Below, piece after piece: positions 2,600-17,625 of a stretch of 64,000 nt of DNA (within the stretch, counting starts at the first letter, position 1; the number at the start of each line of letters is the position of its first letter). The position numbers and the translations under genes were made by a program. This DNA is from an uncultured Allomuricauda sp. (GTDB lineage: Bacteria; Bacteroidota; Bacteroidia; Flavobacteriales; Flavobacteriaceae), in assembly GCA_963677115.1 (NCBI GenBank), contig OY781874.1, positions 2,937,618 to 3,001,617 on the forward strand. The letters are read 5' to 3'. A model generated the notes under the pieces. That model saw only the letters and a program-made list of their open reading frames with translations. It searched no databases and was not told where the DNA came from.

Positions 2600-2706
2600 C
2601 TACACCCCAGTGTAATTCGCTGGGGTAATTTGTTTCAACTCAGCTTTAATATCATCTGAAACGTCCAAGGTCTCGATAAAATCGGCAATGGATTTTTGGT
2701 TGATTT
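2600..2706 (-). pseudogene. Orphan duplicate of the last 34 codons of purB (INQKSIADF...ITPANYTGV-stop)
   Basis: 2604-2706 is identical to 10358-10460; it ends GTG TAG where the intact gene ends GTT TAA; an in-frame TAA lies immediately upstream, so it is not translated. Confidence 0.9.
2604..2706. repeat. 103-bp perfect direct repeat, left copy (att-like)
   Basis: Base-by-base identity with 10358-10460. Confidence 0.95.
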
Positions 2707-3043: not shown

Positions 3044-3565
3044 ATGAAAAAACTACTGATTACCCTATGCCTGCTGGCGGTAAACGCCTGCAGCAACAAT
3101 GACGACAAACCCGTGAACCCAGTGGACTCCCTGCCGCCCATTACCCAAACGGGGGAGGATACGTTTGCATGCCTAATAAACGGCAAGCCCTTTTTTTCTA
3201 GTTATAAAAGGCGAGCTTCATATACATATACCGAAGATGGATATACCTTTTCAATAAGTGGCTCAAGATATGATGATGAAGGAATTAAAACAGTTAGCTT
3301 GGTGGGTTTGGATATTTCAAATTTAATTGAAGAAAAAAATTATTTATTAGAGTCTGAAATGAGTGGCAATTTTTATGGCAGGTACGCTATATACAATTCA
3401 GGTATAACAGCTTACTCTTCATCACATGATACCCCTGGTGTTTTAAACATTACTAAAATTGATTTGGATGAGGGCTTTGTTTCTGGAACATTTGAATTTA
3501 TAGCTAATGACGGAGAAGGAAATATTTTAAGTTTCACCGACGGCCGTTTCGACCTAGAATTTTGA
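3044..3565 (+). CDS. Variable lipoprotein A1 (DUF6252-like)
   Basis: Lipobox AVNAC; LPPITQTGEDTFACLING N-terminal block; SGTFEF...DGRFDLEF C-terminus; family name from recall. Confidence 0.7.
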   Translation: MKKLLITLCLLAVNACSNNDDKPVNPVDSLPPITQTGEDTFACLINGKPFFSSYKRRASYTYTEDGYTFSISGSRYDDEGIKTVSLVGLDISNLIEEKNYLLESEMSGNFYGRYAIYNSGITAYSSSHDTPGVLNITKIDLDEGFVSGTFEFIANDGEGNILSFTDGRFDLEF

Positions 3566-3597: not shown

Positions 3598-3631
3598 GCA
3601 GCATACCCCAAATCCATAAATTTTAAATCTA
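3598..3631 (+). repeat. 34-nt pre-gene element, copy 1
   Basis: GCAGCATACCCCAAATCCATAAATTTTAAATCTA, starting 40 nt before the ATG at 3638. Confidence 0.9.
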
Positions 3632-3637
3632 CAAATC

Positions 3638-4159
3638 ATGAAAAAACTACTGATTACCCTATGCCTGCTGGCGGTAAACGCCTGTAGCAACACCGATGAC
3701 AAGCCCGTGAACCCAGTGGACACCCTGCCGCCCATTACCCAGACAGGGGAGGATACGTTTGCATGCTTAATAAACGGCAAACCCTTTTTTTCTAGTAAAG
3801 ACAGAAGTGCATTTTATACCTATGCTGATGGTGCTTACACCTTGGGAATCAGTGGGACTAGAAATGATGATATTGGCTTAAGGTCAATTCTTTTAGCAGG
3901 AATCGATATTAAAGAAGGGATTAAAGAAGGAATCTGTCCACTTAATTCTGAAAATAGTGGAAGCTTTGACGCCACCTATCTTATAGATGGAGGAGTCACG
4001 CTGAATTCATCAACAACTGATGAGGCTCCAGGTATTTTAACTATCACTCGATTTGACCTAGAGGAATTTATTGTTTCGGGCACCTTTGAGTTTACGGTGG
4101 TAGATGATGAAGGTAATAAATACGAAATGACCGACGGCCGTTTCGACTTAGAATTTTGA
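3638..4159 (+). CDS. Variable lipoprotein A2 (DUF6252-like)
   Basis: Same conserved ends as A1, divergent middle. Confidence 0.7.
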   Translation: MKKLLITLCLLAVNACSNTDDKPVNPVDTLPPITQTGEDTFACLINGKPFFSSKDRSAFYTYADGAYTLGISGTRNDDIGLRSILLAGIDIKEGIKEGICPLNSENSGSFDATYLIDGGVTLNSSTTDEAPGILTITRFDLEEFIVSGTFEFTVVDDEGNKYEMTDGRFDLEF

Positions 4160-4191: not shown

Positions 4192-4225
4192 GCAGCATAC
4201 CCCAGATCCATAAACTTTAAATCTA
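4192..4225 (+). repeat. 34-nt pre-gene element, copy 2
   Basis: GCAGCATACCCCAGATCCATAAACTTTAAATCTA, 40 nt before the ATG at 4232. Confidence 0.9.
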
Positions 4226-4231
4226 TATAAT

Positions 4232-4966
4232 ATGAAAAGAACAATTTTTATTATGCTTTCCTTTTTCATCTTCCAGAGTTGTGAAAAGGACGATACCGCA
4301 TTGGATTGCCAAGCCGACTGCACTACTGTGCAGGGCCAAATAGTTACGGCCAAAGGAGAGCCCTTGCCCAATATATCTGTGGCTTTTGATCATTTTGTCA
4401 GCCAAGGAATTGGAAGTTCCCGTCGAAAAATCAAAGAAACAAGGACTGACGAGAATGGTTATTATACCATGAAATTTTTTATTAAAGATGATGAACTCGG
4501 TGTCGAAGCTGATGGACTTTTTGAATTGAATATCGATTACAGCAACCTTGATTCCAAGGTTTACATGAGTACAAATCAATATTATAAACACACGATGTAT
4601 TATTTGGATAAACGGGACACTACAATCGTTTTGGACTTCTATAACCCTAAAAAAGCCTATATCACGGTAAACCTCAATGGTTTTAATCCAAGTACTGAAG
4701 ATGATTATTTTAAGTTAGAATCATTTTTTCCTTCTGGAATAAAAAATGAGAAGAATAGTATATGGGGTTTTGATTATGTATTGGGTTATGGTACAAGTTA
4801 TAAAGCAACCTCGGCCAATTCTAAAATTGACAGTGTTTTAGTTGCGGAAAATGATAATAATTGGATCAGTATCCGGAGATGGAAGGGTGGTGTAAACTTG
4901 ATAGATGAGGACACTATTTTTTTTGTTCCGGAAAACAATTCAATTAAGCTGGATTTTATCTATTGA
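4232..4966 (+). CDS. Variable lipoprotein B1, unknown function
   Basis: Lipobox FQSC followed by EKDD; TVQGQIVT...GEPL resembles a carboxypeptidase-regulatory/prealbumin-like beta domain. Confidence 0.7.
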   Translation: MKRTIFIMLSFFIFQSCEKDDTALDCQADCTTVQGQIVTAKGEPLPNISVAFDHFVSQGIGSSRRKIKETRTDENGYYTMKFFIKDDELGVEADGLFELNIDYSNLDSKVYMSTNQYYKHTMYYLDKRDTTIVLDFYNPKKAYITVNLNGFNPSTEDDYFKLESFFPSGIKNEKNSIWGFDYVLGYGTSYKATSANSKIDSVLVAENDNNWISIRRWKGGVNLIDEDTIFFVPENNSIKLDFIY

Positions 4967-5006: not shown

Positions 5007-5040
5007 GCAGCATCCCCCAGATCCATAAACTTTAAATCTA
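5007..5040 (+). repeat. 34-nt pre-gene element, copy 3
   Basis: GCAGCATCCCCCAGATCCATAAACTTTAAATCTA, 40 nt before the ATG at 5047. Confidence 0.9.
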
Positions 5041-5046
5041 CAAATT

Positions 5047-5553
5047 ATGAAAAAACTACTGATTACCCTATGCCTGCTGGCGGTAAACGCCTGTGGCAAC
5101 AATGACGACAAACCCGTGAACCCAGTGGACACCCTGCCGCCCATTACCCAAACGGGGGAGGATACGTTTGCATGCTTAATCAATAGAAAACCTTTTTTTT
5201 CCAGTTACAAGAGACGAGCTACTTACTCAGGAAATTCTATTAGTATAAGTGGTTCGAGACAGGATGATATGGGACTAAGATCTGTGTCTATTCAGGGTTT
5301 TAATCTAGAAATCATTGAGGAAGGCTTGTATGTGTTAGAATTAGAGAAAAGCGGTAGTTTCTTCGGAATTTACTTAGTTGATGGAGGACTCACACTTGAT
5401 ATTGGAACCTCTGATAATTTACCTGGTACGCTAACCATCACTCGATTTGATCTGGATGAATTTATCGTTTCGGGCACCTTTGAGTTTACGGTGGTAGATG
5501 ATGAAGGTAATAAATACGAAATCACAGACGGCCGTTTCGACTTAGAATTTTGA
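5047..5553 (+). CDS. Variable lipoprotein A3 (DUF6252-like)
   Basis: Conserved ends; shorter variable segment than A1, A2 and A4. Confidence 0.7.
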   Translation: MKKLLITLCLLAVNACGNNDDKPVNPVDTLPPITQTGEDTFACLINRKPFFSSYKRRATYSGNSISISGSRQDDMGLRSVSIQGFNLEIIEEGLYVLELEKSGSFFGIYLVDGGLTLDIGTSDNLPGTLTITRFDLDEFIVSGTFEFTVVDDEGNKYEITDGRFDLEF

Positions 5554-5585: not shown

Positions 5586-5619
5586 GCAGCATACCCCAGA
5601 TCCATAAACTTTAAATCTA
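5586..5619 (+). repeat. 34-nt pre-gene element, copy 4
   Basis: GCAGCATACCCCAGATCCATAAACTTTAAATCTA, 40 nt before the ATG at 5626. Confidence 0.9.
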
Positions 5620-5625
5620 CATAGT

Positions 5626-6144
5626 ATGAAAAAACTACTGATTACCCTATGCCTGCTGGCGGTAAACGCCTGTAGCAACAATGACGACAAACCCTTGAAC
5701 CCAGTGGACACCCTGCCGCCCATTACCCAAACCGGAGAGGATACATTTGCATGCTTAATAAACGGCAAGCCCTTTTTTTCCAGCAAAGACAGAAGAGCAT
5801 CTTATACGTTTACGGATGGCGCTTATACCTTGGGAGTAAGCGGTTCAAGAAATGACGAGATTGGATTGAGAACTATTTCAATACAGGGGATAGATGTTGC
5901 CCCATTAAACGAAGGTATTTATAATCTTGAATCTGAAAAAAGCGGAAATTTTAGTGGACTCTATGGAATAGATGGAGGTCTATTACTTGATGTAGGAACT
6001 TCTGATAATTTACCGGGTACGCTGACCATCACTCGATTTGATCTGGATGAATTTATCGTTTCGGGCACCTTTGAGTTTACGGTAGTAGATGATGAAGGTA
6101 ATAAATACGAAATCACCGAAGGCCGTTTCGACCTAGAATTTTGA
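5626..6144 (+). CDS. Variable lipoprotein A4 (DUF6252-like)
   Basis: Conserved ends; 5' variable part resembles A2, 3' part resembles A3. Confidence 0.7.
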   Translation: MKKLLITLCLLAVNACSNNDDKPLNPVDTLPPITQTGEDTFACLINGKPFFSSKDRRASYTFTDGAYTLGVSGSRNDEIGLRTISIQGIDVAPLNEGIYNLESEKSGNFSGLYGIDGGLLLDVGTSDNLPGTLTITRFDLDEFIVSGTFEFTVVDDEGNKYEITEGRFDLEF

Positions 6145-6176: not shown

Positions 6177-6210
6177 GCAGCATACCCCAGATCCATAAAC
6201 TTTAAATCTA
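6177..6210 (+). repeat. 34-nt pre-gene element, copy 5
   Basis: GCAGCATACCCCAGATCCATAAACTTTAAATCTA, 39 nt before the ATG at 6216. Confidence 0.9.
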
Positions 6211-6215
6211 CACTT

Positions 6216-6950
6216 ATGAAAAGAACAATTTTTATTATGCTTTCCTTTTTCATCTTCCAAAGTTGTGAAAAGGACGATACCGCTTTGGAATGCCAGACCG
6301 ACTGCACTACAGTGCAGGGCCAGATAGTTACGGCCAAAGGAGAACCCTTGCCCAACATACCTGTGGCTTTTGATTACCAATACATTCTTGGTATTGGTTC
6401 CAAAGTCAGAAGGATAAAAAAAATAACGACCGATAAAAATGGCAATTATAAAATGCAATTTTTTGTCAAGGACGAGGAACTTACCGGAGACGCTGGGGGA
6501 TATTTTGAATTGGTAATCGATTATAGCAACCTTGATTCCGAGGTTTACATAAGTACGGATAGTTATTACTCACTTGCAGTTGGACAGATTAGCAATCGTG
6601 ACACTACGATCACACTGGACTTTTATAACCCTAAAAAAGCCTATATCACGGTAAACCTCAATAGTTTTAATCCGAGTACTGAAGATGATTCATTTATTAT
6701 AAGATCATTTTACCCAACAGGGCGTAAGATTGGCCAAAATAGTTTATTGGATACTGAATATCAAATTGCACAAGGCACAGAGGTTAAAGCTAATTCAGTT
6801 AATACCATTTCAGACAGTGTTCTTGTAGCATTGGAAGACATCAACCGAATTGGTGTGAATAGGAGGAAAAACGGTGTGGAATTGGAGACTGAATACTATA
6901 CAATTTATGTGGACAAGAATAACGAAATAGAATTGAACTATAGTTATTAG
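6216..6950 (+). CDS. Variable lipoprotein B2, paralog of B1
   Basis: Nearly identical first 48 aa and internal RDTTI.LDFYNPKKAYITVNLN.FNPSTEDD block; same length (244 aa). Confidence 0.7.
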   Translation: MKRTIFIMLSFFIFQSCEKDDTALECQTDCTTVQGQIVTAKGEPLPNIPVAFDYQYILGIGSKVRRIKKITTDKNGNYKMQFFVKDEELTGDAGGYFELVIDYSNLDSEVYISTDSYYSLAVGQISNRDTTITLDFYNPKKAYITVNLNSFNPSTEDDSFIIRSFYPTGRKIGQNSLLDTEYQIAQGTEVKANSVNTISDSVLVALEDINRIGVNRRKNGVELETEYYTIYVDKNNEIELNYSY

Positions 6951-6981: not shown

Positions 6982-7015
6982 GCAGCATCCCTCAAATCCA
7001 TAAACTTTAAATCTA
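6982..7015 (+). repeat. 34-nt pre-gene element, copy 6
   Basis: GCAGCATCCCTCAAATCCATAAACTTTAAATCTA, 40 nt before the ATG at 7022. Confidence 0.9.
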
Positions 7016-7021
7016 TAAATT

Positions 7022-10000
7022 ATGAAAAAACTACTGATTTGCTTGACATTATTGACCTGCTTTGGCCTCTCCGCCCAATTGCATATCGACCTTGAGGTCG
7101 CCGACCGCACCAACCAAGCGTTCAGCTTGTTGGACAAAAGCAAGGTTCCCCACAACATGCTACTGGATTATGGGTACGATTTTGTGGACGTGACCAACTA
7201 CGACGGCGTGCTCCGGGACAACAATTATCTAGTACCCTCCGTGTACCGCGACCTGTACAACAGTGTGGTCTCCATGCGTACCACCCTAACCGTGCCGGAA
7301 CTGGTGGACCCTATGCTCATGGAACAGGGGTGGAAGAGCACTTCCAAGACGGAGCTGAACAAACTGGGCAAAGGGGCCATGGCCTCGGCAGTGGTCCTCA
7401 ACGGCATGTACTACCAGTATGCCCGCTTTCGCCCCGATGCGTTGCAGAACGGCCTTATTGCGGTGGAGAACAACAAGTACCGCGATGTGTATGTGGGCAC
7501 GGAGTGGCAGGACCCCTACGAGGAAATGGAAGTGTTTGCTATGGCGCTACCCGTTACGCAGATCAGCAACTCCAAGGTGTCCGTGGTGCTGGGCAAAACG
7601 GATTGGCGCACCAACCAACCGGGCCTGGTGGACGAATTTGCCGTGGATTTTGGCGATGGCGGCGGGTTTGAGCCCATGTTGTTGGGCGTATCCGTAGATC
7701 ATTATTTTGAACAGGACGGGGAGTACGCGTGGACGTTTCGGCTAAAGCTCACGGACGGTACCTTTAAGTACTGCCGCACCCCGGTAAAGGTCACCGGTAA
7801 GGCCAAACAACAGACCCTGACGGCCCGTAACCCTGACTGCGATAAGAAACCCTGGGTAGAGACCATTACAGCCGCTAAGGGGTATATGGGGATAAAGGGA
7901 GTGGCCAATTTACAGATAGCCCCTGCCAAAGAATGTACTAAAATCCACAAACCCTTGATTGTTGTAGAAGGGTTTGATACGGGTTTGATGGGAAATGATC
8001 CAGAATGGGGTGATACACACCTTAAATCTTTTTTGGATGAGGTGAGGTTTAAGTCTCAAAGTCAAGAATTGCAAAACCTTATTACCGAAGACACCGAAGA
8101 AAGTTTTGACATCATCTACGTAAACTGGGAAGATGGCACCGATTGGCTGCAGCGCAATGCCTATGCCCTGGAGGCGGTGATAGAATGGGTGAACAACAAT
8201 AAGGAGGAAGATGCAGCGCCCAACGTTATCTTGGGCCAGAGCATGGGCGGGGTCATTGCCCGGTATGCCCTTCGCGATATGGAGAACAACAATGTGGACC
8301 ACGATACCAGCCTCTACATAAGCCACGATGCCCCGCACCAAGGTGCCCACGTGCCCCCCGGCTTTTTATTTGCCGCACGCCATGTGCTCAACGAGCTTAT
8401 TACCACGCCCATTGGCGATGTTACGGTAGCCGTTGCCAGTAATGAGTTTCCGGTGGACGATGCCCGCCAATTGATAGATAGGCCCGCTGTAAAGCAAATG
8501 CTCATCAATTATGTGGACTCCAATTACGAACTGAACAACACGGTGCACAAGGCATGGCAGACCGAGCTCAAGAACATGGGCTACCCGCAGCAAACACGCA
8601 ATATAGCCATCAGCAATGGTAGCCATTGCGCAGAAGGCTACGGGTTGGAACCCGGCAAAAGCCTTTTCTGGCTGCACGGTAGGGCCTCTACCAGCCTTAT
8701 TGGGGACTTCCTGCTCTTTCTTTATCCAGCCTTAGGAGGAATCCCCGGTGCGGCTTTTGGGGATATTCCTGCCGCTATACTGGGTTTTGTACCGGGAAAG
8801 ACCACCCTTAAAACGGATTTTCAGGCATGGGCCATACCAGGGAACGTAGAAGACTTGATTTATAAGGGATGGATCCAGTACGAAAAGAAAAGTTTATGGA
8901 TTTTGCCCATAACCCGCACCCTTACCAATAAAGCCATTAAATGGCAGGGAGAGAATGTGTATTGGGCAAATTTTCCGGGAGGGGCTATGCCGTTTATCAA
9001 TACTGTAGATGATTTTAATATAAATGACGAGGAAACTATAGTGGACTTTTTGTTGAATTATGATATCACCTTGGAAACACCCCCGGACCTTAATTTTATA
9101 CCCACGACCAGTGCCCTGGATGTAGGCGGCAATAATGTGGCACTTACCCAGGAAGACCATTACAGAGTCTATACCATGGATGCGGAACTACCGGATGGGC
9201 TAAAGATTCAATTTGATAATTTTGCCACCACTTACAATATTTCTGGGAAGAATACGGATCATATTTCCTTTAATAGGGCCAATGGCGATTGGTTGGCCGA
9301 TGAGCTTAAGAATGCAGGCACCGTTTTCGATTGTACATTTTTATGTGGTTCCAGTTTTGTGATCGAGGGAAGCAGCAAGCTTTGTGAACAAGAAATTTAT
9401 TTTGTGGATGTAAAGGGAGATATGCAGGTAGAATGGAGTTCCGATAACATGGAGGCAGCATTACCCAGCGACCCCAACAGCCCGGCAACATCGTTTACCA
9501 CCTCACCAAATTCCTATAACGAAACATTGACCATTTATGCCATTTTGACCTCCGAAAGCTGTGCAGGAGACCCCATAGTTCTGGAAAAAACTGTCCATGT
9601 GGGCAAGCCTGGGCTACCATCCAACTTATGGGGACCCGAAATTGTTTTAACAGGAGCTTTGGTCAAGTATTATGGCGGACCTGCAGAGGGGGCTGATTCT
9701 TATGAATGGTGGCTGCCCCATCCTTTTGAAGTAGTAGACCAGTTTGATTATTTTGGGGATAATTGGCAAATATTAAGTACCAATACCTATTATGATGTGG
9801 CCAATGTATTTACTGGATATGCAAAACATGAGGGGTTGGTACAGCTTATGGGCGTAAACGAGTGTGGGCGGGGACCTGCTATAACAATGCATGTAAAACA
9901 TGTCGGAGAGGGAGAAATTGGTGAAGGAGGTATTCCTTTGGAACAGAATCCAGGATACCAGTCGAACCCTAATTCAAATGAAACCGAGGATGGTGTAGTG

Positions 10001-10255
10001 ATCTATCCCAATACCGCAACGGACGAGGTAAACATCACCTTGGAATCCTCCATGGGTCCAGAAGGGATTGCTCCATCAAAAATCTTGGGTATAGCTGTAT
10101 ACCAACAGCTACAACAAGCACCTAAAAAGCAACTGATTTTTTCCTCACCTAAGACTTCAGCATTGATAGATGTCAGGGATTTAAATGATGGGTACTATTT
10201 TGTAGTGATAGAAACCGATAAAGGCCCGGTGACCAAAATTCTTTTGGTAAAATAA
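7022..10255 (+). CDS. T9SS type-A cargo protein with an alpha/beta-hydrolase (lipase/esterase-like) domain
   Basis: Signal peptide ending LSAQ; GQSMG nucleophile elbow at 8234-8248 (aa 405-409); IVVEGFD and DAPHQGA motifs; C-terminal IYPNT...DVRDLNDGYYFVVIETDKGPVTKILLVK sorting domain. Confidence 0.78.
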   Translation: MKKLLICLTLLTCFGLSAQLHIDLEVADRTNQAFSLLDKSKVPHNMLLDYGYDFVDVTNYDGVLRDNNYLVPSVYRDLYNSVVSMRTTLTVPELVDPMLMEQGWKSTSKTELNKLGKGAMASAVVLNGMYYQYARFRPDALQNGLIAVENNKYRDVYVGTEWQDPYEEMEVFAMALPVTQISNSKVSVVLGKTDWRTNQPGLVDEFAVDFGDGGGFEPMLLGVSVDHYFEQDGEYAWTFRLKLTDGTFKYCRTPVKVTGKAKQQTLTARNPDCDKKPWVETITAAKGYMGIKGVANLQIAPAKECTKIHKPLIVVEGFDTGLMGNDPEWGDTHLKSFLDEVRFKSQSQELQNLITEDTEESFDIIYVNWEDGTDWLQRNAYALEAVIEWVNNNKEEDAAPNVILGQSMGGVIARYALRDMENNNVDHDTSLYISHDAPHQGAHVPPGFLFAARHVLNELITTPIGDVTVAVASNEFPVDDARQLIDRPAVKQMLINYVDSNYELNNTVHKAWQTELKNMGYPQQTRNIAISNGSHCAEGYGLEPGKSLFWLHGRASTSLIGDFLLFLYPALGGIPGAAFGDIPAAILGFVPGKTTLKTDFQAWAIPGNVEDLIYKGWIQYEKKSLWILPITRTLTNKAIKWQGENVYWANFPGGAMPFINTVDDFNINDEETIVDFLLNYDITLETPPDLNFIPTTSALDVGGNNVALTQEDHYRVYTMDAELPDGLKIQFDNFATTYNISGKNTDHISFNRANGDWLADELKNAGTVFDCTFLCGSSFVIEGSSKLCEQEIYFVDVKGDMQVEWSSDNMEAALPSDPNSPATSFTTSPNSYNETLTIYAILTSESCAGDPIVLEKTVHVGKPGLPSNLWGPEIVLTGALVKYYGGPAEGADSYEWWLPHPFEVVDQFDYFGDNWQILSTNTYYDVANVFTGYAKHEGLVQLMGVNECGRGPAITMHVKHVGEGEIGEGGIPLEQNPGYQSNPNSNETEDGVVIYPNTATDEVNITLESSMGPEGIAPSKILGIAVYQQLQQAPKKQLIFSSPKTSALIDVRDLNDGYYFVVIETDKGPVTKILLVK

Positions 10256-10353: not shown

Positions 10354-11697
10354 TTAAACCCCAGTGTAATTCGCTGGGGTAATTTGTTTCAACTCAGCTT
10401 TAATATCATCTGAAACGTCCAAGGTCTCGATAAAATCGGCAATGGATTTTTGGTTGATTTTTTCGTTGGTACGCGTTAAACCTTTTAAGGCTTCGTATGG
10501 GTTGGGATAGCCCTCTCTTCGTAAAATGGTCTGAATGGCCTCGGCAACCACGGCCCAATTATCCTCTAAATCTTGCTCGAACTTGGATTGGTTCAGTACC
10601 AATTTGCCCAATCCTTTTAAAGTAGACTGGAAACCAACTATGGTATGTGCAAAAGGCACCCCCACATTTCGTAAAACAGTACTGTCCGTAAGATCACGTT
10701 GTAATCTGGAAATCGGGAGTTTGGCGGATAAATGTTCAAAAATGGCATTGGCCAAGCCCAAATTTCCTTCCGAATTTTCAAAATCGATAGGATTCACCTT
10801 GTGCGGCATGGCCGAAGAGCCAACTTCTCCTTTTTTGATTTTCTGTTTAAAGTAATCCATGGAAATGTAGGTCCAAAAGTCGCGATCCAAATCAATCAAA
10901 ATGGTGTTGATGCGTTTAAGGCAATCGAACAAAGCCGCCATATGGTCGTAGTGCTCGATTTGGGTAGTGGGGAAGGAGTGGTGCAAGCCCAGTTTCTCCT
11001 GTACAAACTGCTTTCCAAAGGCTCTCCAATCATTATTGGGATACGCCACCTTGTGTGCGTTGTAATTCCCTGTGGCGCCACCGAACTTAGCAGCACTGGG
11101 TATGTCGTTCAATAAATTGAACTGCTCTTTAAAACGTTCCACAAACACGTCGATTTCCTTGCCTAAACGGGTAGGGGAAGCGGGCTGACCGTGGGTCCTG
11201 GCCAACATAGGGATGTTTTTCCATGTCTTGGCCAGTTCCTTCAATTTTTCAAAAACCTCCAAATAGGAAGGAACGTACACATCGTTCATCGCCTCTTTGA
11301 TGGACAAAGGAATGGCCGTGTTGTTTATGTCTTGGGAAGTCAGTCCAAAGTGAATGAACTCCTTGTATTTCTGAAGGTCTAAAGCATCAAACTTTTGTTT
11401 GATGAAGTATTCCACGGCTTTTACATCGTGATTGGTAGTTTTTTCAATATCCTTGATGGCTTGGGCGTCTTCGGAAGAAAATTCTTGATAGATTTTCTGC
11501 AATTCGGGAAACAGCGCCGTATTGAAATCGGCCAATTGCGGCAAAGGGACTTCGCAAAGCGCTATAAAATATTCAATCTCTACTTGAACACGGTATTTGA
11601 TCAGGGCTTCTTCCGAAAAGTAGTCTTTTAAGGCTTTGGTTTTGTTTCTATATCTGCCGTCAATCGGCGAAATGGCGTTTAGTTGTGTCAGGGACAT
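10354..11697 (-). CDS. purB: Adenylosuccinate lyase
   Basis: LNAISPIDGRY N-terminus, TNHDVKAVEY, signature GSSAMPHKVNPIDFENSEGN; start moved to the ATG at 11697. Confidence 0.96.
   Translation of the reverse strand: MSLTQLNAISPIDGRYRNKTKALKDYFSEEALIKYRVQVEIEYFIALCEVPLPQLADFNTALFPELQKIYQEFSSEDAQAIKDIEKTTNHDVKAVEYFIKQKFDALDLQKYKEFIHFGLTSQDINNTAIPLSIKEAMNDVYVPSYLEVFEKLKELAKTWKNIPMLARTHGQPASPTRLGKEIDVFVERFKEQFNLLNDIPSAAKFGGATGNYNAHKVAYPNNDWRAFGKQFVQEKLGLHHSFPTTQIEHYDHMAALFDCLKRINTILIDLDRDFWTYISMDYFKQKIKKGEVGSSAMPHKVNPIDFENSEGNLGLANAIFEHLSAKLPISRLQRDLTDSTVLRNVGVPFAHTIVGFQSTLKGLGKLVLNQSKFEQDLEDNWAVVAEAIQTILRREGYPNPYEALKGLTRTNEKINQKSIADFIETLDVSDDIKAELKQITPANYTGV
10358..10460. repeat. 103-bp perfect direct repeat, right copy (inside the purB 3' end)
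   Basis: Identical to 2604-2706. Confidence 0.95.
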
Positions 11698-11743
11698 GGT
11701 CAAGAAAATTTTGAAAGGTTCAAAGATACTTAAACGCCATGGT

Positions 11744-12340
11744 TTAGACACCCAAATCGGCCAACTTATCCAGAGTTTTTTTTGCGCGGTTCCGGTATCC
11801 AGTGCTTCCGTTGGGGTAGCTATCTTCCAGAACTAGTTTGAGTTCGGAGTGGACCCAATCAAATTTTAATCCCAAATAGTACAGACTCGTCATTGCAAAA
11901 ACCTTGGGCGCCATATTCATAGGACCAATGAGCCAATCAAAACAAGCGGTCATTATTTTTTCCAATTGGTCATCTGTAATATTTTTAAGGAAATCGGACT
12001 TCTTTTTCTTAAAATAGGCCTCACAGAGCATTTCGCACACATGGGCAATGGGGCGAATACAGGATTCGGACTTTAATTCAGATAAACCGTTCACAAAATT
12101 ATCCATAAAAGGGAGGATGTAGTGTAGTTCCTTTCGCATCAAATGGTCAAAAGTCCAACTTGCATTAAAGGTACCTTTCTTGTCTTCCCATAAAATTTCT
12201 TGATAAAGCACTTGTGCCAATTGGGGTTCCTGCTGTAATTGAATAACCAATTCGTCAATCTGGACCTTGGAAATTCTCCCAGAATGAAGTGCGATATGAA
12301 GCTGCTCTTGCGTCACCAAAAAATCAATATATTTACTCAA
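11744..12340 (-). CDS. Conserved hypothetical helical-repeat protein
   Basis: All-helical pattern, C-terminal GYRNRAKK; no catalytic motif seen; the start may be the GTG at 12316. Confidence 0.6.
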   Translation of the reverse strand: MSKYIDFLVTQEQLHIALHSGRISKVQIDELVIQLQQEPQLAQVLYQEILWEDKKGTFNASWTFDHLMRKELHYILPFMDNFVNGLSELKSESCIRPIAHVCEMLCEAYFKKKKSDFLKNITDDQLEKIMTACFDWLIGPMNMAPKVFAMTSLYYLGLKFDWVHSELKLVLEDSYPNGSTGYRNRAKKTLDKLADLGV

Positions 12341-12805: not shown

Positions 12806-13490
12806 TAAGATTCTCCACCAAAACCGGTAGTCCCTTGGCAGCGGTTTTTGGGATTACGGTCAGGTTATCAAAATCTGTAGATCGAATGTTGGGCTTGGGG
12901 TCAATAAAGTATATTGGAGTCTGTTTTGGGGCATAATGAATCAAACTTGCCGCAGGATAGACTTGCATAGAGGTGCCCACTATAATCAAAATTTCGGCTT
13001 GTTGGGCAATCTGTACTGCGGTCTCCAACATGGGTACCATTTCGCCAAACCAAACAATATGTGGACGTAGCTGATGTCCGTTTTTGTCTGTATCGCCCAA
13101 AATCAAGTCCTTTTTCCAATCCAATATATGGTTTTCATCCATCGTGCTCCGCACTTTGAACAATTCTCCGTGCAAATGCACCACGTGGGAACTGCCGGCC
13201 TGCTCGTGCAGATTATCTACATTTTGAGTTATAATACTGACATCAAAAGCCTGTTCCAGTTCTGCCAATGCTAAATGACCTTTGTTTGGGACAACCTCCA
13301 ATAATTGTCTTCTCCTTTGGTTGTAAAATTCAAGTACAAGTTCTGGGTCTTTTGCAAACCCTTGTGGCGAGGCCACTTGCATCACATCATGGCCTTCCCA
13401 AAGGCCATTTTCGTCACGAAAGGTCTTAAGACCACTTTCGGCACTCATGCCAGCACCTGTTAACACAACTATTTTTTGTTTTTCCATCAT
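12795..13490 (-). CDS. cobB: NAD-dependent protein deacylase (sirtuin)
   Basis: GAGMSAESG, TQNVDNLHE, HG, LRPHIVWFGE and GTS..VYPAA motifs. Confidence 0.92.
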   Translation of the reverse strand: MMEKQKIVVLTGAGMSAESGLKTFRDENGLWEGHDVMQVASPQGFAKDPELVLEFYNQRRRQLLEVVPNKGHLALAELEQAFDVSIITQNVDNLHEQAGSSHVVHLHGELFKVRSTMDENHILDWKKDLILGDTDKNGHQLRPHIVWFGEMVPMLETAVQIAQQAEILIIVGTSMQVYPAASLIHYAPKQTPIYFIDPKPNIRSTDFDNLTVIPKTAAKGLPVLVENLINN

Positions 13491-14626
13491 TTATTTTTCC
13501 CCAACAGATTTAAAATTATGCTTTTGAACATAGAAATTCCAGTCGTAATTAGCTCATCCGGAAAATCATAGTCTGCATTGTGCAGGGCTGGAGTGGATTC
13601 ACCGGCCCCAATGCCGAACATTGAAGTTTTGTAGGATTTGGAAAACCAACCAAAATCCTCACCGAATTTAAACGGAACAGGACGTTCTACAGTTGGAAAA
13701 TTGTTGGATGAGGCAGCCTGTCTTACCAAGTGGGTACATTCGTTGTGAACGGAACTAGCCGGAAAATATTCCATCCAATCCAGTTTAGACCCCAAGTGCC
13801 ATTGTTTGCAAACCTTGTCCACAATCCCGGTTAATTTGGATTGCAGTTTCTTCATTTGGTCTGTGTTCCAAGTACGAAGCGTGTAATGCAATTCAGCATT
13901 TGCTGGTGAAATACCGTATGATGTTTGGCCCATTTTGAGGTGTATCGGTGTTACAATGGCAAATTTTGGGTCCATTGGTTCCGGCGCGTTCAATTTTGAT
14001 ATGCTTTGAACAATTTCAGCCAAGGCCAGAGCCGGATTTATGCCATTCTCAGGCTCTGATGCATGGGATTCTTTGCCTTTTAGCTGTATGGAAACACTTA
14101 TCACCTCTGCAGAAAATCCCTGTTCTGTGATGAGTATGCTGTGCAGTGGCACTTTGGGAATATTGTGCAAGGCGAAGACATAATCGGTCTGCAATCCTTT
14201 AAATTTTTTGTCCTTAACCATTCTCAGTGCTCCTTCACCGGTTTCCTCGGCCGGTTGAAAAAGTAAGATTATAGTTCCTGATTTTAAGTGGCTTACCGAC
14301 AGCCATTTTGCTATACCGGCCATAATGGTCATATGGCCATCATGCCCGCATTTGTGGGAGACTCCATTTGTATTGGACTTATGCGGAAAGGTATTGGTTT
14401 CCTGAATCGGCAATGCATCCAATTCGCATCTTAGGGTTATTCTGGGTCCGTTATCAGAGAATTTAAAAACTACCGCCATACCGGCACCTCCAATCCCTTC
14501 AATTATTTTGCTGGGGCTGTAGGGAGCAATAAATTCTTTTATGATATCCGCCGTTCCCTGTTCCCTGTTGGATAGGTCTGGGTCTGCATGCAATTTATGC
14601 CTTAATGCCACGAGTTGATTATCCAT
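13487..14626 (-). CDS. M20-family amidohydrolase
   Basis: RHKLHADPDLS, LRCELDALP, HKCGHDGH, FQPAEE, EDF and LHN motifs; start moved to the ATG at 14626. Confidence 0.88.
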   Translation of the reverse strand: MDNQLVALRHKLHADPDLSNREQGTADIIKEFIAPYSPSKIIEGIGGAGMAVVFKFSDNGPRITLRCELDALPIQETNTFPHKSNTNGVSHKCGHDGHMTIMAGIAKWLSVSHLKSGTIILLFQPAEETGEGALRMVKDKKFKGLQTDYVFALHNIPKVPLHSILITEQGFSAEVISVSIQLKGKESHASEPENGINPALALAEIVQSISKLNAPEPMDPKFAIVTPIHLKMGQTSYGISPANAELHYTLRTWNTDQMKKLQSKLTGIVDKVCKQWHLGSKLDWMEYFPASSVHNECTHLVRQAASSNNFPTVERPVPFKFGEDFGWFSKSYKTSMFGIGAGESTPALHNADYDFPDELITTGISMFKSIILNLLGKNK

Positions 14627-16376
14627 TGGCAGCTGGTTTTCTTGATTGAAGCCATCCATTATGATTGCTGGCTGCTTGTTCTGCCCATTGTGTGATGCGC
14701 GGTCCAAAACATTCCAATATGGCATCAACACCGATGACGGTTCCTTTGGCCAGACGTCCAAGTAGTGCGATGGGCAAGGTGTTTTCAGATGTATCCAATA
14801 TATATCCGTGGTCATCCGTGGCAACACCGAGTTCATCATGAACGGCTTGAATCATCCCATCCGACAGCATATTTCTTACCAACGAAGATGTTACTTCCTT
14901 TATTTTGGGCTGGTCCATTACCGAGTCCACCATGATGTTGACCGTTATTGACTTGTTAGGATTTGCCAACCTCCAACCGTCATCTACCAGTTCAATTTCA
15001 GGATTGTTCACATAGTCTAAATTAAGCACACCGGCTTTTTTTAGGGCAATCAATTGTTGAATGGCCTCTACCGGAGGTCCGTAAGAGTATCTTTTGGTAG
15101 ATTCATCCAACATTATGACCTTGGCAAAAACATTATCTGGGCATGCACTATAAGAAAGCTGTTTATATATCGAAGGTTGACAATGTCGCCAAACCTGTCC
15201 AATACAAAAATCCAAGCTAATCGCATGTTGTCCCGTGGCCATGCCTACGAAACTTTCCATCATGGCCCCCACAGGCTCATCCTGAGGCACAATTGCGGGG
15301 TCATCCAAAGTTGGATCTTTTAGCCATTTTTTGATGATATCTTCTATCCTGGGTTGTTCGAGTTGGTTGGGGTTGATGTTCTTGGGCAGTTCCAAGAAAA
15401 TATCCGCAGCGATCGGAGCGAATGCATCAAGCAAAAAACCAATATCCTCCGCAGTTTTTTGGGTATCTCCGTTTCCGATCAGGATTTCAAAATTATCCAA
15501 TTGTGTGGCTGAAGGGGCAAACCAATCGTCTATTTCTTTATTTAATGGCTTTGGAACCGGGGGCAGGCCATCCAACGAAAAAGGAACTAATAGATTTTCA
15601 ATCTTTTGGATTGGAGCGTAGGTAAATTCCCGGGTTTTCTTGTTCTCGATTTGAAAATCACCAAATTCTTTCGCTATTCGGCGCGCCACGTCGATCATGG
15701 TAAGGCCAAACCCTCGTATTCCGATGATACTTTTGGAGTCCAGATGTTGACTGGACAAAATATTGGAAAGGGGATAGGCGTTTTGGAAGAGACTAATTCC
15801 GTTGTGGTTGTCCACATGATTCTGCCATTTGGCCATTTGGCCAGAAATTTTGGTAGGTTGGTGTCCTATAGTCAGTAAAATTTCGTCAAAATCACCGTAG
15901 GTATTGTTGCTTGTGCATATATTGATTTTTTTATTTTCCATTAGTTGAAGTTCATGCACTTTGTCTATACGCATAGTAGCGTATCCTTTTTCCACCAAGG
16001 GGTCGATCAAAGAACAGAACCTTTGGTTCAGATATTTGCCGATTTTACGCCGAGGGGGATAGGCATCCACCTCTCTGGATATATTATGATCTATCCAATC
16101 ATGGTAAGATGGGAATGATGGAATGTTGAATTCTTTGAAACGGATTTCTTTTCTTTCATCGAGTTCCAAAATCCGTTCGGTGATGTTTATCCAATTGGAG
16201 CTGGACTGGGCGGTATCGTATACATGACCTCCACCAAAATTCCCGGAAGCCTCGAACAAGGTAAAATGGAGGTTTTTAAAGCTGTTTTTCTTTATCAATT
16301 GAGCGACCAAGCACTCCAAGGCATATCCACCCCGTGGACCAATACCTATAATACCAAGGTTGCGTTTATCGGCCAT
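14619..16376 (-). CDS. FAD/NAD(P)-binding oxidoreductase (NAD_binding_9-like)
   Basis: IIGIGPRGGYALE dinucleotide-binding motif, LLTIGH, second Rossmann motif RGFGLTMIDV. Confidence 0.75.
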   Translation of the reverse strand: MADKRNLGIIGIGPRGGYALECLVAQLIKKNSFKNLHFTLFEASGNFGGGHVYDTAQSSSNWINITERILELDERKEIRFKEFNIPSFPSYHDWIDHNISREVDAYPPRRKIGKYLNQRFCSLIDPLVEKGYATMRIDKVHELQLMENKKINICTSNNTYGDFDEILLTIGHQPTKISGQMAKWQNHVDNHNGISLFQNAYPLSNILSSQHLDSKSIIGIRGFGLTMIDVARRIAKEFGDFQIENKKTREFTYAPIQKIENLLVPFSLDGLPPVPKPLNKEIDDWFAPSATQLDNFEILIGNGDTQKTAEDIGFLLDAFAPIAADIFLELPKNINPNQLEQPRIEDIIKKWLKDPTLDDPAIVPQDEPVGAMMESFVGMATGQHAISLDFCIGQVWRHCQPSIYKQLSYSACPDNVFAKVIMLDESTKRYSYGPPVEAIQQLIALKKAGVLNLDYVNNPEIELVDDGWRLANPNKSITVNIMVDSVMDQPKIKEVTSSLVRNMLSDGMIQAVHDELGVATDDHGYILDTSENTLPIALLGRLAKGTVIGVDAILECFGPRITQWAEQAASNHNGWLQSRKPAANG

Positions 16377-16537
16377 TTAGTTTACACCAACTTTTGGATG
16401 TATTTTATGTTAGTTGTCATTCATTTTCCGGACGTTCGATCATGGATTTCACTTCTTTGATCTCTTTTCTTTGTGCCTTAATAATTTTTTGCGCCAACTT
16501 TCGCCTTTGCCCTGCCAATAAAACCGATTTGAATCAA

Positions 16538-17545
16538 TTAGTTTGCCCCAATTCCCTCAAAAGTTATCTTAATTGGTTTTATAGTGCCATCTGGGTTAAA
16601 TTCCATTTTATCCATGCACGTTACGCGATGGTCACGGTCTTGGTTGGGAATGGGTCTTCTGTGGTAAACGATGATCCATTCGTCCGTCCCCGGTTTGTTG
16701 ATTACGGAATGATGTCCTGCACCAGTCGCAATGTCTCCTTCGCTTGATTCTAGAATGGTCCCGATTCGTTCATACGGTCCGGTAGGCTTATCGGACATGG
16801 CGTAGGCTACTTTATAGCTGCCATCGGTCCAGTTCCCTTCGGACCACATAAAATAATAAATCCCTTTTCTTAAAAACATAAACGGACCTTCCACATAGCC
16901 TTCGGGAGTAATTTCTTTGAACAGGTTACCATTTTCCCATGGTTCAAAGCCTGTAAAATCGGCATTGAGTTTCCCCAAGTTGCAATGGCTCCATCCTCCG
17001 TAGAAGAAATAATAGGTGCCGTCCACGTCTTTAAAAACAAATTGGTCGATAGGTTGTGCGTTGTTATAAAAGTCAGAAATCAACGGTTCACCGAGGTAAT
17101 CTTCAAAAGGGCCTCCTGGATTATCCGCTACCGCTACTCCTATGCCCCCATAATGGTTGATGTCGTTATTTGGGTCGTAGGAACTTCTCCCGGGGCGTTG
17201 GATATCGTTGGCGCCAAAAAACAAATAGTATTTACTGTCTTTTTCAATAATGGAGGGAGCCCAAAGTGCCTGTCTAAGCCATTTAATTTTGGTGGTGTCC
17301 AAAATACGCTCGTGCTTTTCCCAATTTACCAGGTCCTTGGATGAAAAAGCATCAAAATGCAGTTGCTTGTCATAGTCATCCGAAAAGGTGGGGTAGACCC
17401 AATAGGTATCGCCAAAAACGGCACCCTCAGGGTCCGCATACCATCCCTCAAAAATGGGGTTGTTGTGTTTTTCTTTGGATTGTTGTGCAGGCAGCCCGAT
17501 CACAAATAGAAGAAAAGCTGTGAAGGATATGATTTTTGTATTCAT
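16538..17545 (-). CDS. Exported glycoside hydrolase family 43
   Basis: Signal peptide; NPIFEGWYADP, LWAP, ID, EGP and GHHS motifs of the five-bladed propeller. Confidence 0.88.
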   Translation of the reverse strand: MNTKIISFTAFLLFVIGLPAQQSKEKHNNPIFEGWYADPEGAVFGDTYWVYPTFSDDYDKQLHFDAFSSKDLVNWEKHERILDTTKIKWLRQALWAPSIIEKDSKYYLFFGANDIQRPGRSSYDPNNDINHYGGIGVAVADNPGGPFEDYLGEPLISDFYNNAQPIDQFVFKDVDGTYYFFYGGWSHCNLGKLNADFTGFEPWENGNLFKEITPEGYVEGPFMFLRKGIYYFMWSEGNWTDGSYKVAYAMSDKPTGPYERIGTILESSEGDIATGAGHHSVINKPGTDEWIIVYHRRPIPNQDRDHRVTCMDKMEFNPDGTIKPIKITFEGIGAN

Positions 17546-17625
17546 ATTAGCTGAGATATTTCTTTTGGGTTTAAGTTTTAATTTTGACCTAAGATAGCAT
17601 TTCCAATTTTCCCTATCTTGGTTTT

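Follow-up and report, generated by a model that had tools for sequence, protein, structure and literature searches.

Type VI secretion system (T6SS) lipase effectors reportedly come with immunity lipoproteins of their own: Russell et al. are said to have described, in 2013, the effectors Tle1-4 together with the Tli immunity lipoproteins. Other secreted lipases and phospholipases have dedicated accessory proteins, as in the LipA-Lif foldase pair and in PhlA-PhlB. Orphan immunity arrays on Bacteroidales mobile elements, known as acquired interbacterial defense clusters, were reportedly found by Ross et al. in 2019. We know of no described type IX secretion system (T9SS) cargo family that is paired with a conserved lipoprotein gene array. 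For TANFOR, the Bacteroidetes polymorphic toxins with adjacent immunity genes, export by the T9SS has been hypothesized, and a role of this system in interbacterial killing or inhibition is still a hypothesis (PMC7073777). Here, we consider a locus in a window of 64,000 nucleotides (nt) from an uncultured Allomuricauda sp. of the Flavobacteriaceae (contig OY781874.1, positions 2,937,618 to 3,001,617), in which six lipoprotein genes of two families, A and B, precede a long hydrolase gene. The original prediction, made from this DNA alone, had taken the gene product to be a secreted, lipase-type candidate toxin. We find that the hydrolase and the DUF6252 lipoprotein A form a conserved two-gene module, with near-obligate pairing and a variable number of A copies, and that the hydrolase gene encodes a predicted secreted, multidomain serine alpha/beta-hydrolase whose active site is intact and invariant across its family.

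The evidence for the module comes from a species-level genome scan, with one genome per species, in which 163 relatives of the hydrolase were found among 185,579 genomes and the best 80 loci were kept. The upstream count was taken over the 72 loci with at least 700 nt of upstream sequence. In 64 of the 72, the hydrolase gene is directly preceded, on its own strand, by one to five copies of an A homolog, with a gap of 15 to 190 nt. The link to neighboring lipoproteins made in the original prediction is borne out by this count, as homologs mostly do have such neighbors. The exceptions are of several kinds: in loci L006 and L007 a B gene takes the adjacent place of A, in L008 the adjacent A gene has a frameshift, in L039 A is found downstream, and in L047 and L050 the hydrolase itself is split. 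When the flanking open reading frames (ORFs) of the 80 loci were clustered, A was found in 71 and the next family in 10. A is the sole recurrent neighbor family in these loci, and the T6SS genes vgrG, hcp, and PAAR show no linkage. Because A alone recurs, the pair can be regarded as a self-contained two-gene module that sits in varied neighborhoods. Its distribution is patchy, as the number of relatives in the scan indicates, and some genomes have two copies.

In arrangement, and in arrangement only, this module resembles the Tle/Tli pairs of the T6SS, where a GxSxG serine hydrolase is likewise encoded beside small lipoproteins, often in tandem diverged copies. The proposed logic, a lipolytic toxin with a neutralizing lipoprotein, would be common to both. 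However, instead of a T6SS linkage, the hydrolase has a Sec signal peptide and a putative T9SS C-terminal sorting domain (CTD), and it has no detectable sequence similarity or close fold similarity to Tle proteins. The partner genes here lie upstream and carry a surface-export motif, whereas Tli proteins are periplasmic. By analogy, Tle/Tli pairs are still the described systems that the module may work most like.

The number of A copies varies more widely than the upstream count suggests, with seven to eight ahead of one hydrolase gene on the metagenome contigs L085 and L086. A search with A returned 239 homologous proteins, and some A arrays have no hydrolase gene within 6 kb, which is how we defined hydrolase-free arrays. 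In Formosa sp. A9 (L081, 6001-9062), five tandem A-like DUF6252 genes lie beside the conjugative-transposon genes TraM and DUF4138/TraN, with no hydrolase nearby. Other such arrays are found in Bizionia gelidisalsuginis (three to four copies), Dokdonia sinensis (two copies), and L087 (one copy). The orphan immunity arrays of Bacteroidales are toxin-free tandem arrays, and the array of L081, next to conjugative-transposon genes, is a candidate counterpart. Those arrays target T6SS effectors and are recombinase-linked, whereas immunity is only predicted here and no recombinase was seen.

The hydrolase gene lies exactly at the position first given for it and encodes 1,077 amino acids (aa). Its GQSMG motif at residues 405 to 409, named in the original prediction as a lipase-type active site, belongs to a set of residues conserved throughout the family: an alignment of 101 homologs shows no variation at G405, Q406, S407, M408, G409, G410, S434, D436, P438, G441, and H747, and a single homolog departs from D700. 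Since these residues are invariant across 101 homologs, the motif represents a conserved active site and not a chance GxSxG, and the enzyme is therefore under selection to remain catalytically competent. H747 is the histidine of the NTDHISF motif, which had been put forward as possibly catalytic.

We ran AlphaFold2 on the family alignment, both for the full-length protein and for the catalytic domain alone (aa 262 to 778). The mean predicted local distance difference test score (pLDDT) was 80.5 for the former; the latter reached a pLDDT of 84.3 and a predicted template modeling score of 0.88. In the model, an alpha/beta core spans aa 306 to 445, with strand 401-406 leading into S407 and the GQSMGG sequence (aa 405 to 410) and strand 429-435 leading into SHDAPHQGA. 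A cap (aa 446 to 525), a strand (aa 526 to 534), and an insertion of long beta strands (aa 547 to 640) follow. Further on, strand 691-694 is followed by D700, and H747 lies between strand 733-737 and helix 752-762. On this model, the likeliest catalytic triad would be S407-D700-H747. D700 is favored as the acid for its place in the loop that follows a core strand (aa 691 to 694), while D436, which follows strand 429-435 and is kept in all 101 homologs, is the alternative acid.

To what kind of hydrolase does this active site belong? A Foldseek search of the PDB with the full-length model was dominated by fibronectin type III (FN3)/Ig repeats, and it was hence repeated with the catalytic domain alone. 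This gave 372 matches at an E value of ≤1e-3, of which the top 50 were inspected. Nearly all of these are alpha/beta-hydrolases, at E values of about 1e-6, but they are distant, with query template modeling (TM) scores of 0.21 to 0.27 and 10 to 14% identity. The top matches include yeast Lpx1, esterases of the hormone-sensitive lipase family, feruloyl esterases, and monoacylglycerol lipases; Tle effectors, LCAT, and family I lipases are absent from the top 50. Sequence and family-profile searches of the PDB gave no match to the catalytic domain, only to T9SS CTDs and to the PKD domain of ColH. The Pfam families PGAP1, LCAT, DUF676, and Palm_thioest score 13 to 17 bits over about 60 residues around S407, all below their cutoffs. 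For PGAP1-like PF07819, the score falls short, at 17.4 bits against a curated cutoff of 24.3, over aa 392 to 444 only; for LCAT, it is 15.2 against 21. About 10 of the 120 homologs listed have a precomputed PF07819 match. With PGAP1-like, DUF676, and LCAT proteins (PF07819, PF05057, and PF02450), the hydrolase has in common the region of the xSMGG elbow, the next strand, and its motif; the cap, the beta insertion, and the N-terminal domain are particular to the hydrolase family. Membership in a characterized lipase or phospholipase family is not supported, given the subthreshold lipase-like Pfam scores, the lack of a PDB match by sequence or profile, and the mixed, low-TM Foldseek results. Of the term lipase-type, then, the generic alpha/beta-hydrolase part stands, while no lipase family is reached above threshold. 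Because the nearest solved folds are generic esterases and lipases with TM scores of about 0.25, the assignment is only a lead, though a reasonable one.

The catalytic region also holds the Gly-rich hydrophobic segment that had been described as uncharged and as a possible membrane-inserting lid or hairpin. There is such a stretch, FLLFLYPALGGIPGAAFGDIPAAILGFVPG (aa 563 to 592, nt 8708-8797), but it contains one charge, D582, and so it is not strictly uncharged; its longest uncharged run is 18 aa. With a 19-aa Kyte-Doolittle window, the maximum is 1.45, under the threshold of 1.6 that is usual for a transmembrane helix. A structure prediction had been proposed as a check, and the AlphaFold2 model places the segment at the tip of the beta insertion as three to four short helices (aa 559 to 587). 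The sequence of the segment is poorly conserved, but all 101 homologs have a hydrophobic stretch rich in Gly and Pro here. It covers about 42 residues, with a median Kyte-Doolittle value of 0.94 and about four charged residues, arranged as two hydrophobic stretches with a D/E-P turn between them and a near-invariant terminal LGxLPG. When close relatives are compared, no part of the catalytic region evolves faster than the segment and the insertion around it, with 46 to 48% identity compared to 77% in the core. These features fit better with a lid or an interfacial, in-plane anchor than with a membrane-spanning hairpin.

The rest of the protein is laid out as would be expected of a T9SS cargo protein. 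Its N terminus, MKKLLICLTLLTCFGLSAQ, was read from the sequence, with no predictor, as the signal peptide already suggested for it; LHID follows, and the highest 19-aa hydrophobicity of the protein (1.89) falls here. The beta-rich DFGDG module noted at the end of the N-terminal region appears to be PKD-like: it closes a beta-sandwich (aa 121 to 257), a Pfam PKD_4 match in this region has a subthreshold E value of 4.8e-4, and with the family profile the PKD domain of ColH is reached at an E value of 0.037. A low-confidence hinge (aa 264 to 268) follows in the model. The Ig-like repeats that had been recognized after the catalytic region are present in the model as two domains, and homologs have PKD_6 and K319L-PKD matches there. 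As for the type A sorting domain, the claim has support at the family level and not from the protein's own score, which is below threshold. Homologs score above the cutoff (e.g., 36.0 and 37.7 bits), many have precomputed matches, and T9SS CTDs of solved structure are matched by the family profile (8glk_D, E value of 1.4e-3; 8qb1_A/mirolase, E value of 0.02). In the AlphaFold2 model, aa 992 to 1076 form a C-terminal beta-sandwich. At the level of the family, the hydrolase thus does appear to fit a T9SS type A cargo protein, and we infer that it is exported by this system; no T9SS genes were seen among the scanned ORFs of the window. The signal peptide, Ig-like spacers, and putative C-terminal beta-sandwich sorting domain are shared with other type A cargo, such as gingipains, mirolase, and secreted enzymes of Flavobacterium johnsoniae. 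Unlike these, the hydrolase has an uncharacterized catalytic domain and a conserved lipoprotein gene array.

The lipoprotein genes stand in the order A-A-B-A-A-B before the hydrolase gene, with A proteins of 168 to 173 aa and B proteins of 244 aa. A1 and A3 reach the PF19765 (DUF6252) cutoff of 27.2 bits, and A2 and A4 are just under it (Table 1); all 34 aligned A-family members match PF19765 (best E value, 5.6e-9). DUF6252 is the sole Pfam relation of A, and neither A nor B has PDB relatives by sequence or profile. Matches of A and B to a zinc-finger-like TGE..F.C pattern were dismissed as chance. Aligned with each other in hhalign, A and B match over the signal peptide and lipobox only. Both had been proposed as partners of the hydrolase. 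For A, the upstream pairing agrees; B is not a general partner, but a tiny, lineage-specific family, with 16 clusters in 5.8 billion proteins, all Flagellimonas-like. The lipoprotein export signal (LES) defined experimentally in Capnocytophaga canimorsus is C-X-K-(D/E)2-X, and the corresponding consensus sequences are SDDDD for Bacteroides fragilis and SDDFE for F. johnsoniae (PMC5080379). The C-E-K-D-D-T of B matches the C. canimorsus signal exactly. A1 has C-S-N-N-D-D-K, and the A-family consensus is C-x-(N/K)-D-D-D. Given these export-like motifs, both A and B are probably exposed at the cell surface, which is also where T9SS cargo arrives.

LipA-Lif and PhlA-PhlB offer another comparison, as in these pairs a lipolytic gene is cotranscribed with a small partner that controls folding or activity, and the pairing here is similar. 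A differs from those partners in being a lipoprotein of about 150 mature residues, without similarity to them, that occurs in arrays and also without a nearby enzyme gene. A Lif-type pair was rejected, since Lif is a helical foldase that has about 340 aa and a membrane anchor, and A is a lipoprotein of half that length or so with a lipobox Cys.

The homolog search found at least 493 proteins, most of them 1,030 to 1,090 aa long with an identical layout (architectures were tallied from the 120 matches listed). Identity is 58 to 69% in Flagellimonas/Muricauda and 32 to 45% in many other genera of Flavobacteriaceae, and the only names that the homologs carry in their sources are "hypothetical," "T9SS type A sorting domain-containing," and "PGAP1-like." A search of representatives with the catalytic region gave 455 clusters at an E value of ≤1e-30 and 3,748 at ≤1e-3; the best 150 were listed, leaving out about 2,000 more distant relatives and their architectures. 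Judged from these searches, the hydrolase is a member of a large uncharacterized family found mainly in Flavobacteriaceae. The catalytic core is its most conserved part: in distant homologs its mean identity is 56%, while the Ig domains have 14 to 24% and the CTD has 16%. In TANFOR proteins, the N-terminal domain is the conserved one, nuclease or other toxin domains are exchanged at the C terminus, and the immunity genes follow downstream. The conserved catalytic core, the CTD at the C terminus, and the upstream partner genes rule out a TANFOR-type polymorphic toxin.

Natural variants of the hydrolase suggest how its parts relate to one another. In Psychroflexus tropicus (L047, 10007-13827; L050, 9606-14657) and Flavobacterium sp. 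PLA-1-15 (L071, 2449-5929), the gene is split: a first ORF, which has a signal peptide and lacks a CTD, encodes the N-terminal domain (aa 1 to 265) alone; next come one or two A genes, and after these an ORF for the catalytic region, Ig domains, and CTD, again with a signal peptide of its own. L050 has an additional 5' fragment of the catalytic region. Forms of about 800 aa without the N-terminal domain make up about a tenth of the top representatives (best 150 listed). Judged from the split genes and these shorter forms, the N-terminal domain is a separable unit that works with the rest of the protein, and it could be a pro-domain. It shows no relation to A in hhalign (probability, 2.6%). An uninterrupted ORF of 2,841 aa in a metagenome-assembled genome of an uncultured Flavobacterium (L039, 3732-12257) has about 1,780 extra N-terminal residues, with no Pfam match, ahead of a complete hydrolase through the CTD; two A genes lie downstream and none is adjacent upstream. 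The hydrolase gene is frameshifted or interrupted in L008, L069, L080, L053, and L021, where assembly error is possible. In L008, from [Muricauda] lutisoli, the closest sequenced relative, the frameshift falls just before the catalytic His (12175-12177). The adjacent A gene (9357-9927) is frameshifted too and another A is intact, which could reflect pseudogenization or sequencing error.

In the window, the whole A-A-B-A-A-B-hydrolase island is bracketed by a 106-nt direct repeat that consists of the last ~35 codons of purB and the terminator hairpin (Table 1). Decayed remnants of the upstream copy are found at the corresponding place in L008 and L007. In L004 (13237-14671) and L002 (13356-14675), a second copy of the purB 3' end brackets a different insert of 1.1 to 1.2 kb, which in L004 holds two paralogous small lipoproteins. 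The 3' end of purB seems to be a site of recurrent insertion, though no integrase was seen there. Within the island, a 58-nt leader is repeated before six of the seven genes. The leader spans the start codon, so the hydrolase and A share their first residues, MKKLLI. In L082, a 74-aa fragment of the hydrolase 5' end lies just after a B gene.

The A copies are 65 to 77% identical among themselves and the B copies 63%. Synonymous divergence (dS) between paralogs is 0.13 to 0.43 at the gene ends and exceeds 1.2 in the center, which indicates that the copies are old and that their ends have been homogenized by gene conversion. Compared to L008, the closest genome, flanking proteins are 79 to 95% identical, the hydrolase about 69%, and A 59 to 70%. 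Over 56 pairs, distances of A and the hydrolase correlate with a rho of 0.5 to 0.75, highest for the N-terminal domain, a test that does not separate coevolution from shared descent. A partial Mantel test was significant for every region of the hydrolase and so does not discriminate between regions. This correlation is weak evidence for co-inheritance of A and the hydrolase. A scan for sigma-70 promoters found 23 where 19.7 were expected, which is not above chance, and the sigma-70 motif is not of the Bacteroidetes type. The sequencing runs that hold the locus have a uniform depth, as for DNA, and so give no expression or operon signal.

Table 1. Positions of the hydrolase, its parts, the lipoprotein genes, and the repeats of the island in the window
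Feature	Position (nt)	Strand	Basis
Predicted secreted alpha/beta-hydrolase gene	7022..10255	+	At least 493 homologs; AlphaFold2 mean pLDDT 80.5
Predicted signal peptide, aa 1-19, MKKLLICLTLLTCFGLSAQ	7022..7078	+	Read from sequence; most hydrophobic 19-aa window, 1.89
N-terminal accessory domain, aa 20-262	7079..7807	+	Helices aa 25-115, then beta-sandwich, PKD-like DFGDG module aa 201-257
Catalytic alpha/beta-hydrolase region, aa 275-765, with cap and beta insertion	7844..9316	+	AlphaFold2 aa 262-778; Foldseek E ~1e-6
Nucleophile elbow GQSMG, aa 405-409; S407 at nt 8240-8242	8234..8248	+	Invariant in 101/101 homologs
SHDAPHQGA, aa 434-442, after strand beta6; D436 candidate acid	8321..8347	+	S434, D436, P438, G441 invariant
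Hydrophobic Gly/Pro/Ala-rich segment, aa 559-592, tip of beta insertion aa 547-640	8696..8797	+	AlphaFold2 pLDDT 58-75
D700 in motif SALD, favored candidate acid	9119..9121	+	Kept in 100/101 homologs; loop after core strand
NTDHISF, aa 744-750; H747 (nt 9260-9262) candidate catalytic His	9251..9271	+	Invariant in 101/101 homologs
Two Ig/PKD-like beta-sandwich spacers, aa 780-960	9359..9901	+	AlphaFold2; PKD_6/K319L-PKD matches in homologs; Foldseek FN3/Ig matches
Putative T9SS type A C-terminal sorting domain, aa 991-1077, Gly-rich linker before it	9992..10252	+	PF18962 24.3 bits, below threshold
A1, DUF6252 lipoprotein, 173 aa, lipobox Cys16 then SNNDDK	3044..3565	+	PF19765 30.2 vs 27.2 bits
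A2, DUF6252-like lipoprotein, 173 aa	3638..4159	+	PF19765 22.3 bits; 65-77% identity to other A copies
B1, lipoprotein, 244 aa, lipobox then C-E-K-D-D-T	4232..4966	+	N terminus weakly CarboxypepD_reg-like
A3, DUF6252 lipoprotein, 168 aa	5047..5553	+	PF19765 27.2 bits
A4, DUF6252-like lipoprotein, 172 aa	5626..6144	+	PF19765 25.2 bits; 239 homologs
B2, lipoprotein, 244 aa, directly upstream of hydrolase gene	6216..6950	+	63% identity to B1
Upstream copy of 106-nt direct repeat, duplicate purB 3' end and terminator hairpin, left island edge	2601..2706	.	99% identity
Downstream copy of 106-nt direct repeat, true purB 3' end	10355..10460	.	purB 10354..11751, minus strand
58-nt leader with start codon and first codons (MKKLLI), hydrolase copy	6982..7039	+	One of six; 78-95% identity
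Other 58-nt leader copies	3598-3655, 4192-4249, 5007-5064, 5586-5643, 6177-6234	+	Before six of seven island genes in all

Beyond the island, two DUF4252 genes (403-942 and 1057-1596) lie upstream of it and of an MscS channel gene (1723-2538). In L082 (484-2600), the DUF4252 genes follow a gene for an extracytoplasmic function (ECF) sigma factor, and this synteny is conserved in Flagellimonas; these genes are probably unrelated to the hydrolase. Farther downstream, at ~13490-17600 of the window, genes for an M20 peptidase, an FAD/NAD-binding protein, and a GH43 glycosidase are missing at this place in the other Flagellimonas genomes compared, and this region is a second variable spot.

How might the module work? 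We regard an effector with surface immunity as the best reading of it, while holding that reading to be somewhat short of probable; its toxicity is something that we infer. The enzyme would cross the inner membrane via Sec, fold in the periplasm, and be exported by the T9SS. Outside, it would cleave an ester or lipid at a membrane or other hydrophobic surface, with the hydrophobic hairpin serving as its lid or as an interfacial anchor. A, joined in Flagellimonas by B, would bind and neutralize the enzyme on the surface of the producer, so that the module could be used as an effector-immunity pair against neighboring cells, and the diverged tandem A copies and hydrolase-free A arrays may protect against the variants of other strains. 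What favors this reading over a feeding enzyme and over a chaperone pair is the diverged arrays, the enzyme-free arrays, the patchy distribution, the varied neighborhoods, the interrupted enzyme genes, and the divergence of the module, which is faster than that of its flanks. A more specific version, in which the hydrolases would be the first known family of lipolytic interbacterial toxins exported by the T9SS, neutralized by surface DUF6252 lipoproteins from toxin-adjacent arrays and from toxin-free arrays that sometimes lie beside mobile elements, seems doubtful to us at present. Several observations weigh against the effector-immunity reading. The sorting domain of the window protein is below the curated cutoffs (24.3 against 27 bits for PF18962; 14.3 against 23 for TIGR04183), and model confidence at the hydrophobic segment is moderate (pLDDT, 58 to 75). 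The catalytic domain is without a close characterized relative that would point to a substrate. No positive selection was seen in the center of the A and B genes, where the ratio of nonsynonymous to synonymous divergence is 0.2 to 0.3 with dS saturated, and the mosaic pattern of the A copies comes from gene conversion at the gene ends. The hydrolase-free status of A arrays refers to the 6 kb around them. The candidate immunity genes lie upstream and their products are probably surface exposed, unlike the classical periplasmic Tli. Finally, the literature searched holds nothing on DUF6252 or the hydrolase family, and no activity, secretion, binding, or toxicity data for any family member.

It is tempting to see instead a T9SS-secreted or surface esterase or lipase that acts on environmental lipids or esterified polymers, e.g., from algae, with A docking the enzyme or binding its substrate or products. 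As general knowledge, the known T9SS cargo of Flavobacteria are mostly degradative enzymes or adhesins, and the top Foldseek matches are ordinary esterases, feruloyl esterases, and monoacylglycerol lipases. A and B look surface exposed in the manner of surface glycan-binding lipoproteins, UniRef names one A homolog lipocalin-like, and the active site is under strong purifying selection. However, A is the only gene that recurs beside the module in the 80 loci; SusC/SusD, TonB-dependent receptors, regulators, and other catabolic genes do not. Docking poorly explains up to eight diverged copies per enzyme, or enzyme-free arrays, one of them beside conjugative-transposon genes, and neither the patchy distribution nor the frequent interruption of the enzyme gene favors a role in feeding, so that we consider nutrient acquisition a serious but unlikely explanation. 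The strict same-strand pairing could also mean that A is only a chaperone, a foldase, a pro-enzyme inhibitor, or a surface anchor for a dangerous lipolytic enzyme, with no fights between strains. This would suit an N-terminal pro-domain, which in three loci is a secreted protein in its own right that lacks a CTD, with A encoded in between, as well as the covariation of A, itself weak evidence, that is strongest with the N-terminal domain. Yet a chaperone would be expected in single copy, not in 2 to 8 diverged copies, and A arrays without a nearby enzyme would be unexpected. A also lacks any similarity to Lif-type foldases, and its LES-like motif indicates the cell surface, not the periplasm, a predicted location that argues against a periplasmic foldase role; all this makes self-protection or maturation alone improbable. 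A last idea is that the lipoproteins are the substrate: a PGAP1-like deacylase might strip the lipid anchor from A, B, or other surface lipoproteins and so shed a variable coat. PGAP1 is a lipid-anchor deacylase, to which the hydrolase has a weak Pfam resemblance, enzyme and lipoproteins are predicted to share a compartment, and A varies strongly in its center, as surface antigens do. Still, the PGAP1 match is below its cutoff, the literature searched offers no precedent, and hydrolase-free arrays would have no releasing enzyme, and we give this idea hardly any credence.

The module, with one enzyme gene and its lipoprotein partners in many culturable Flavobacteriaceae, offers a compact test of the role of the T9SS in competition, and natural controls exist in the split genes, the frameshifted enzyme genes, and the arrays without a nearby enzyme gene. 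Even if the hydrolase proves to be a feeding enzyme, such work would give a function to a large family of hypothetical proteins, with its hundreds of clusters, and to DUF6252, and it would explain a strict enzyme-lipoprotein pairing that is undescribed for T9SS cargo. If the toxin reading is true, the T9SS would have a direct role in competition among marine Flavobacteriaceae.

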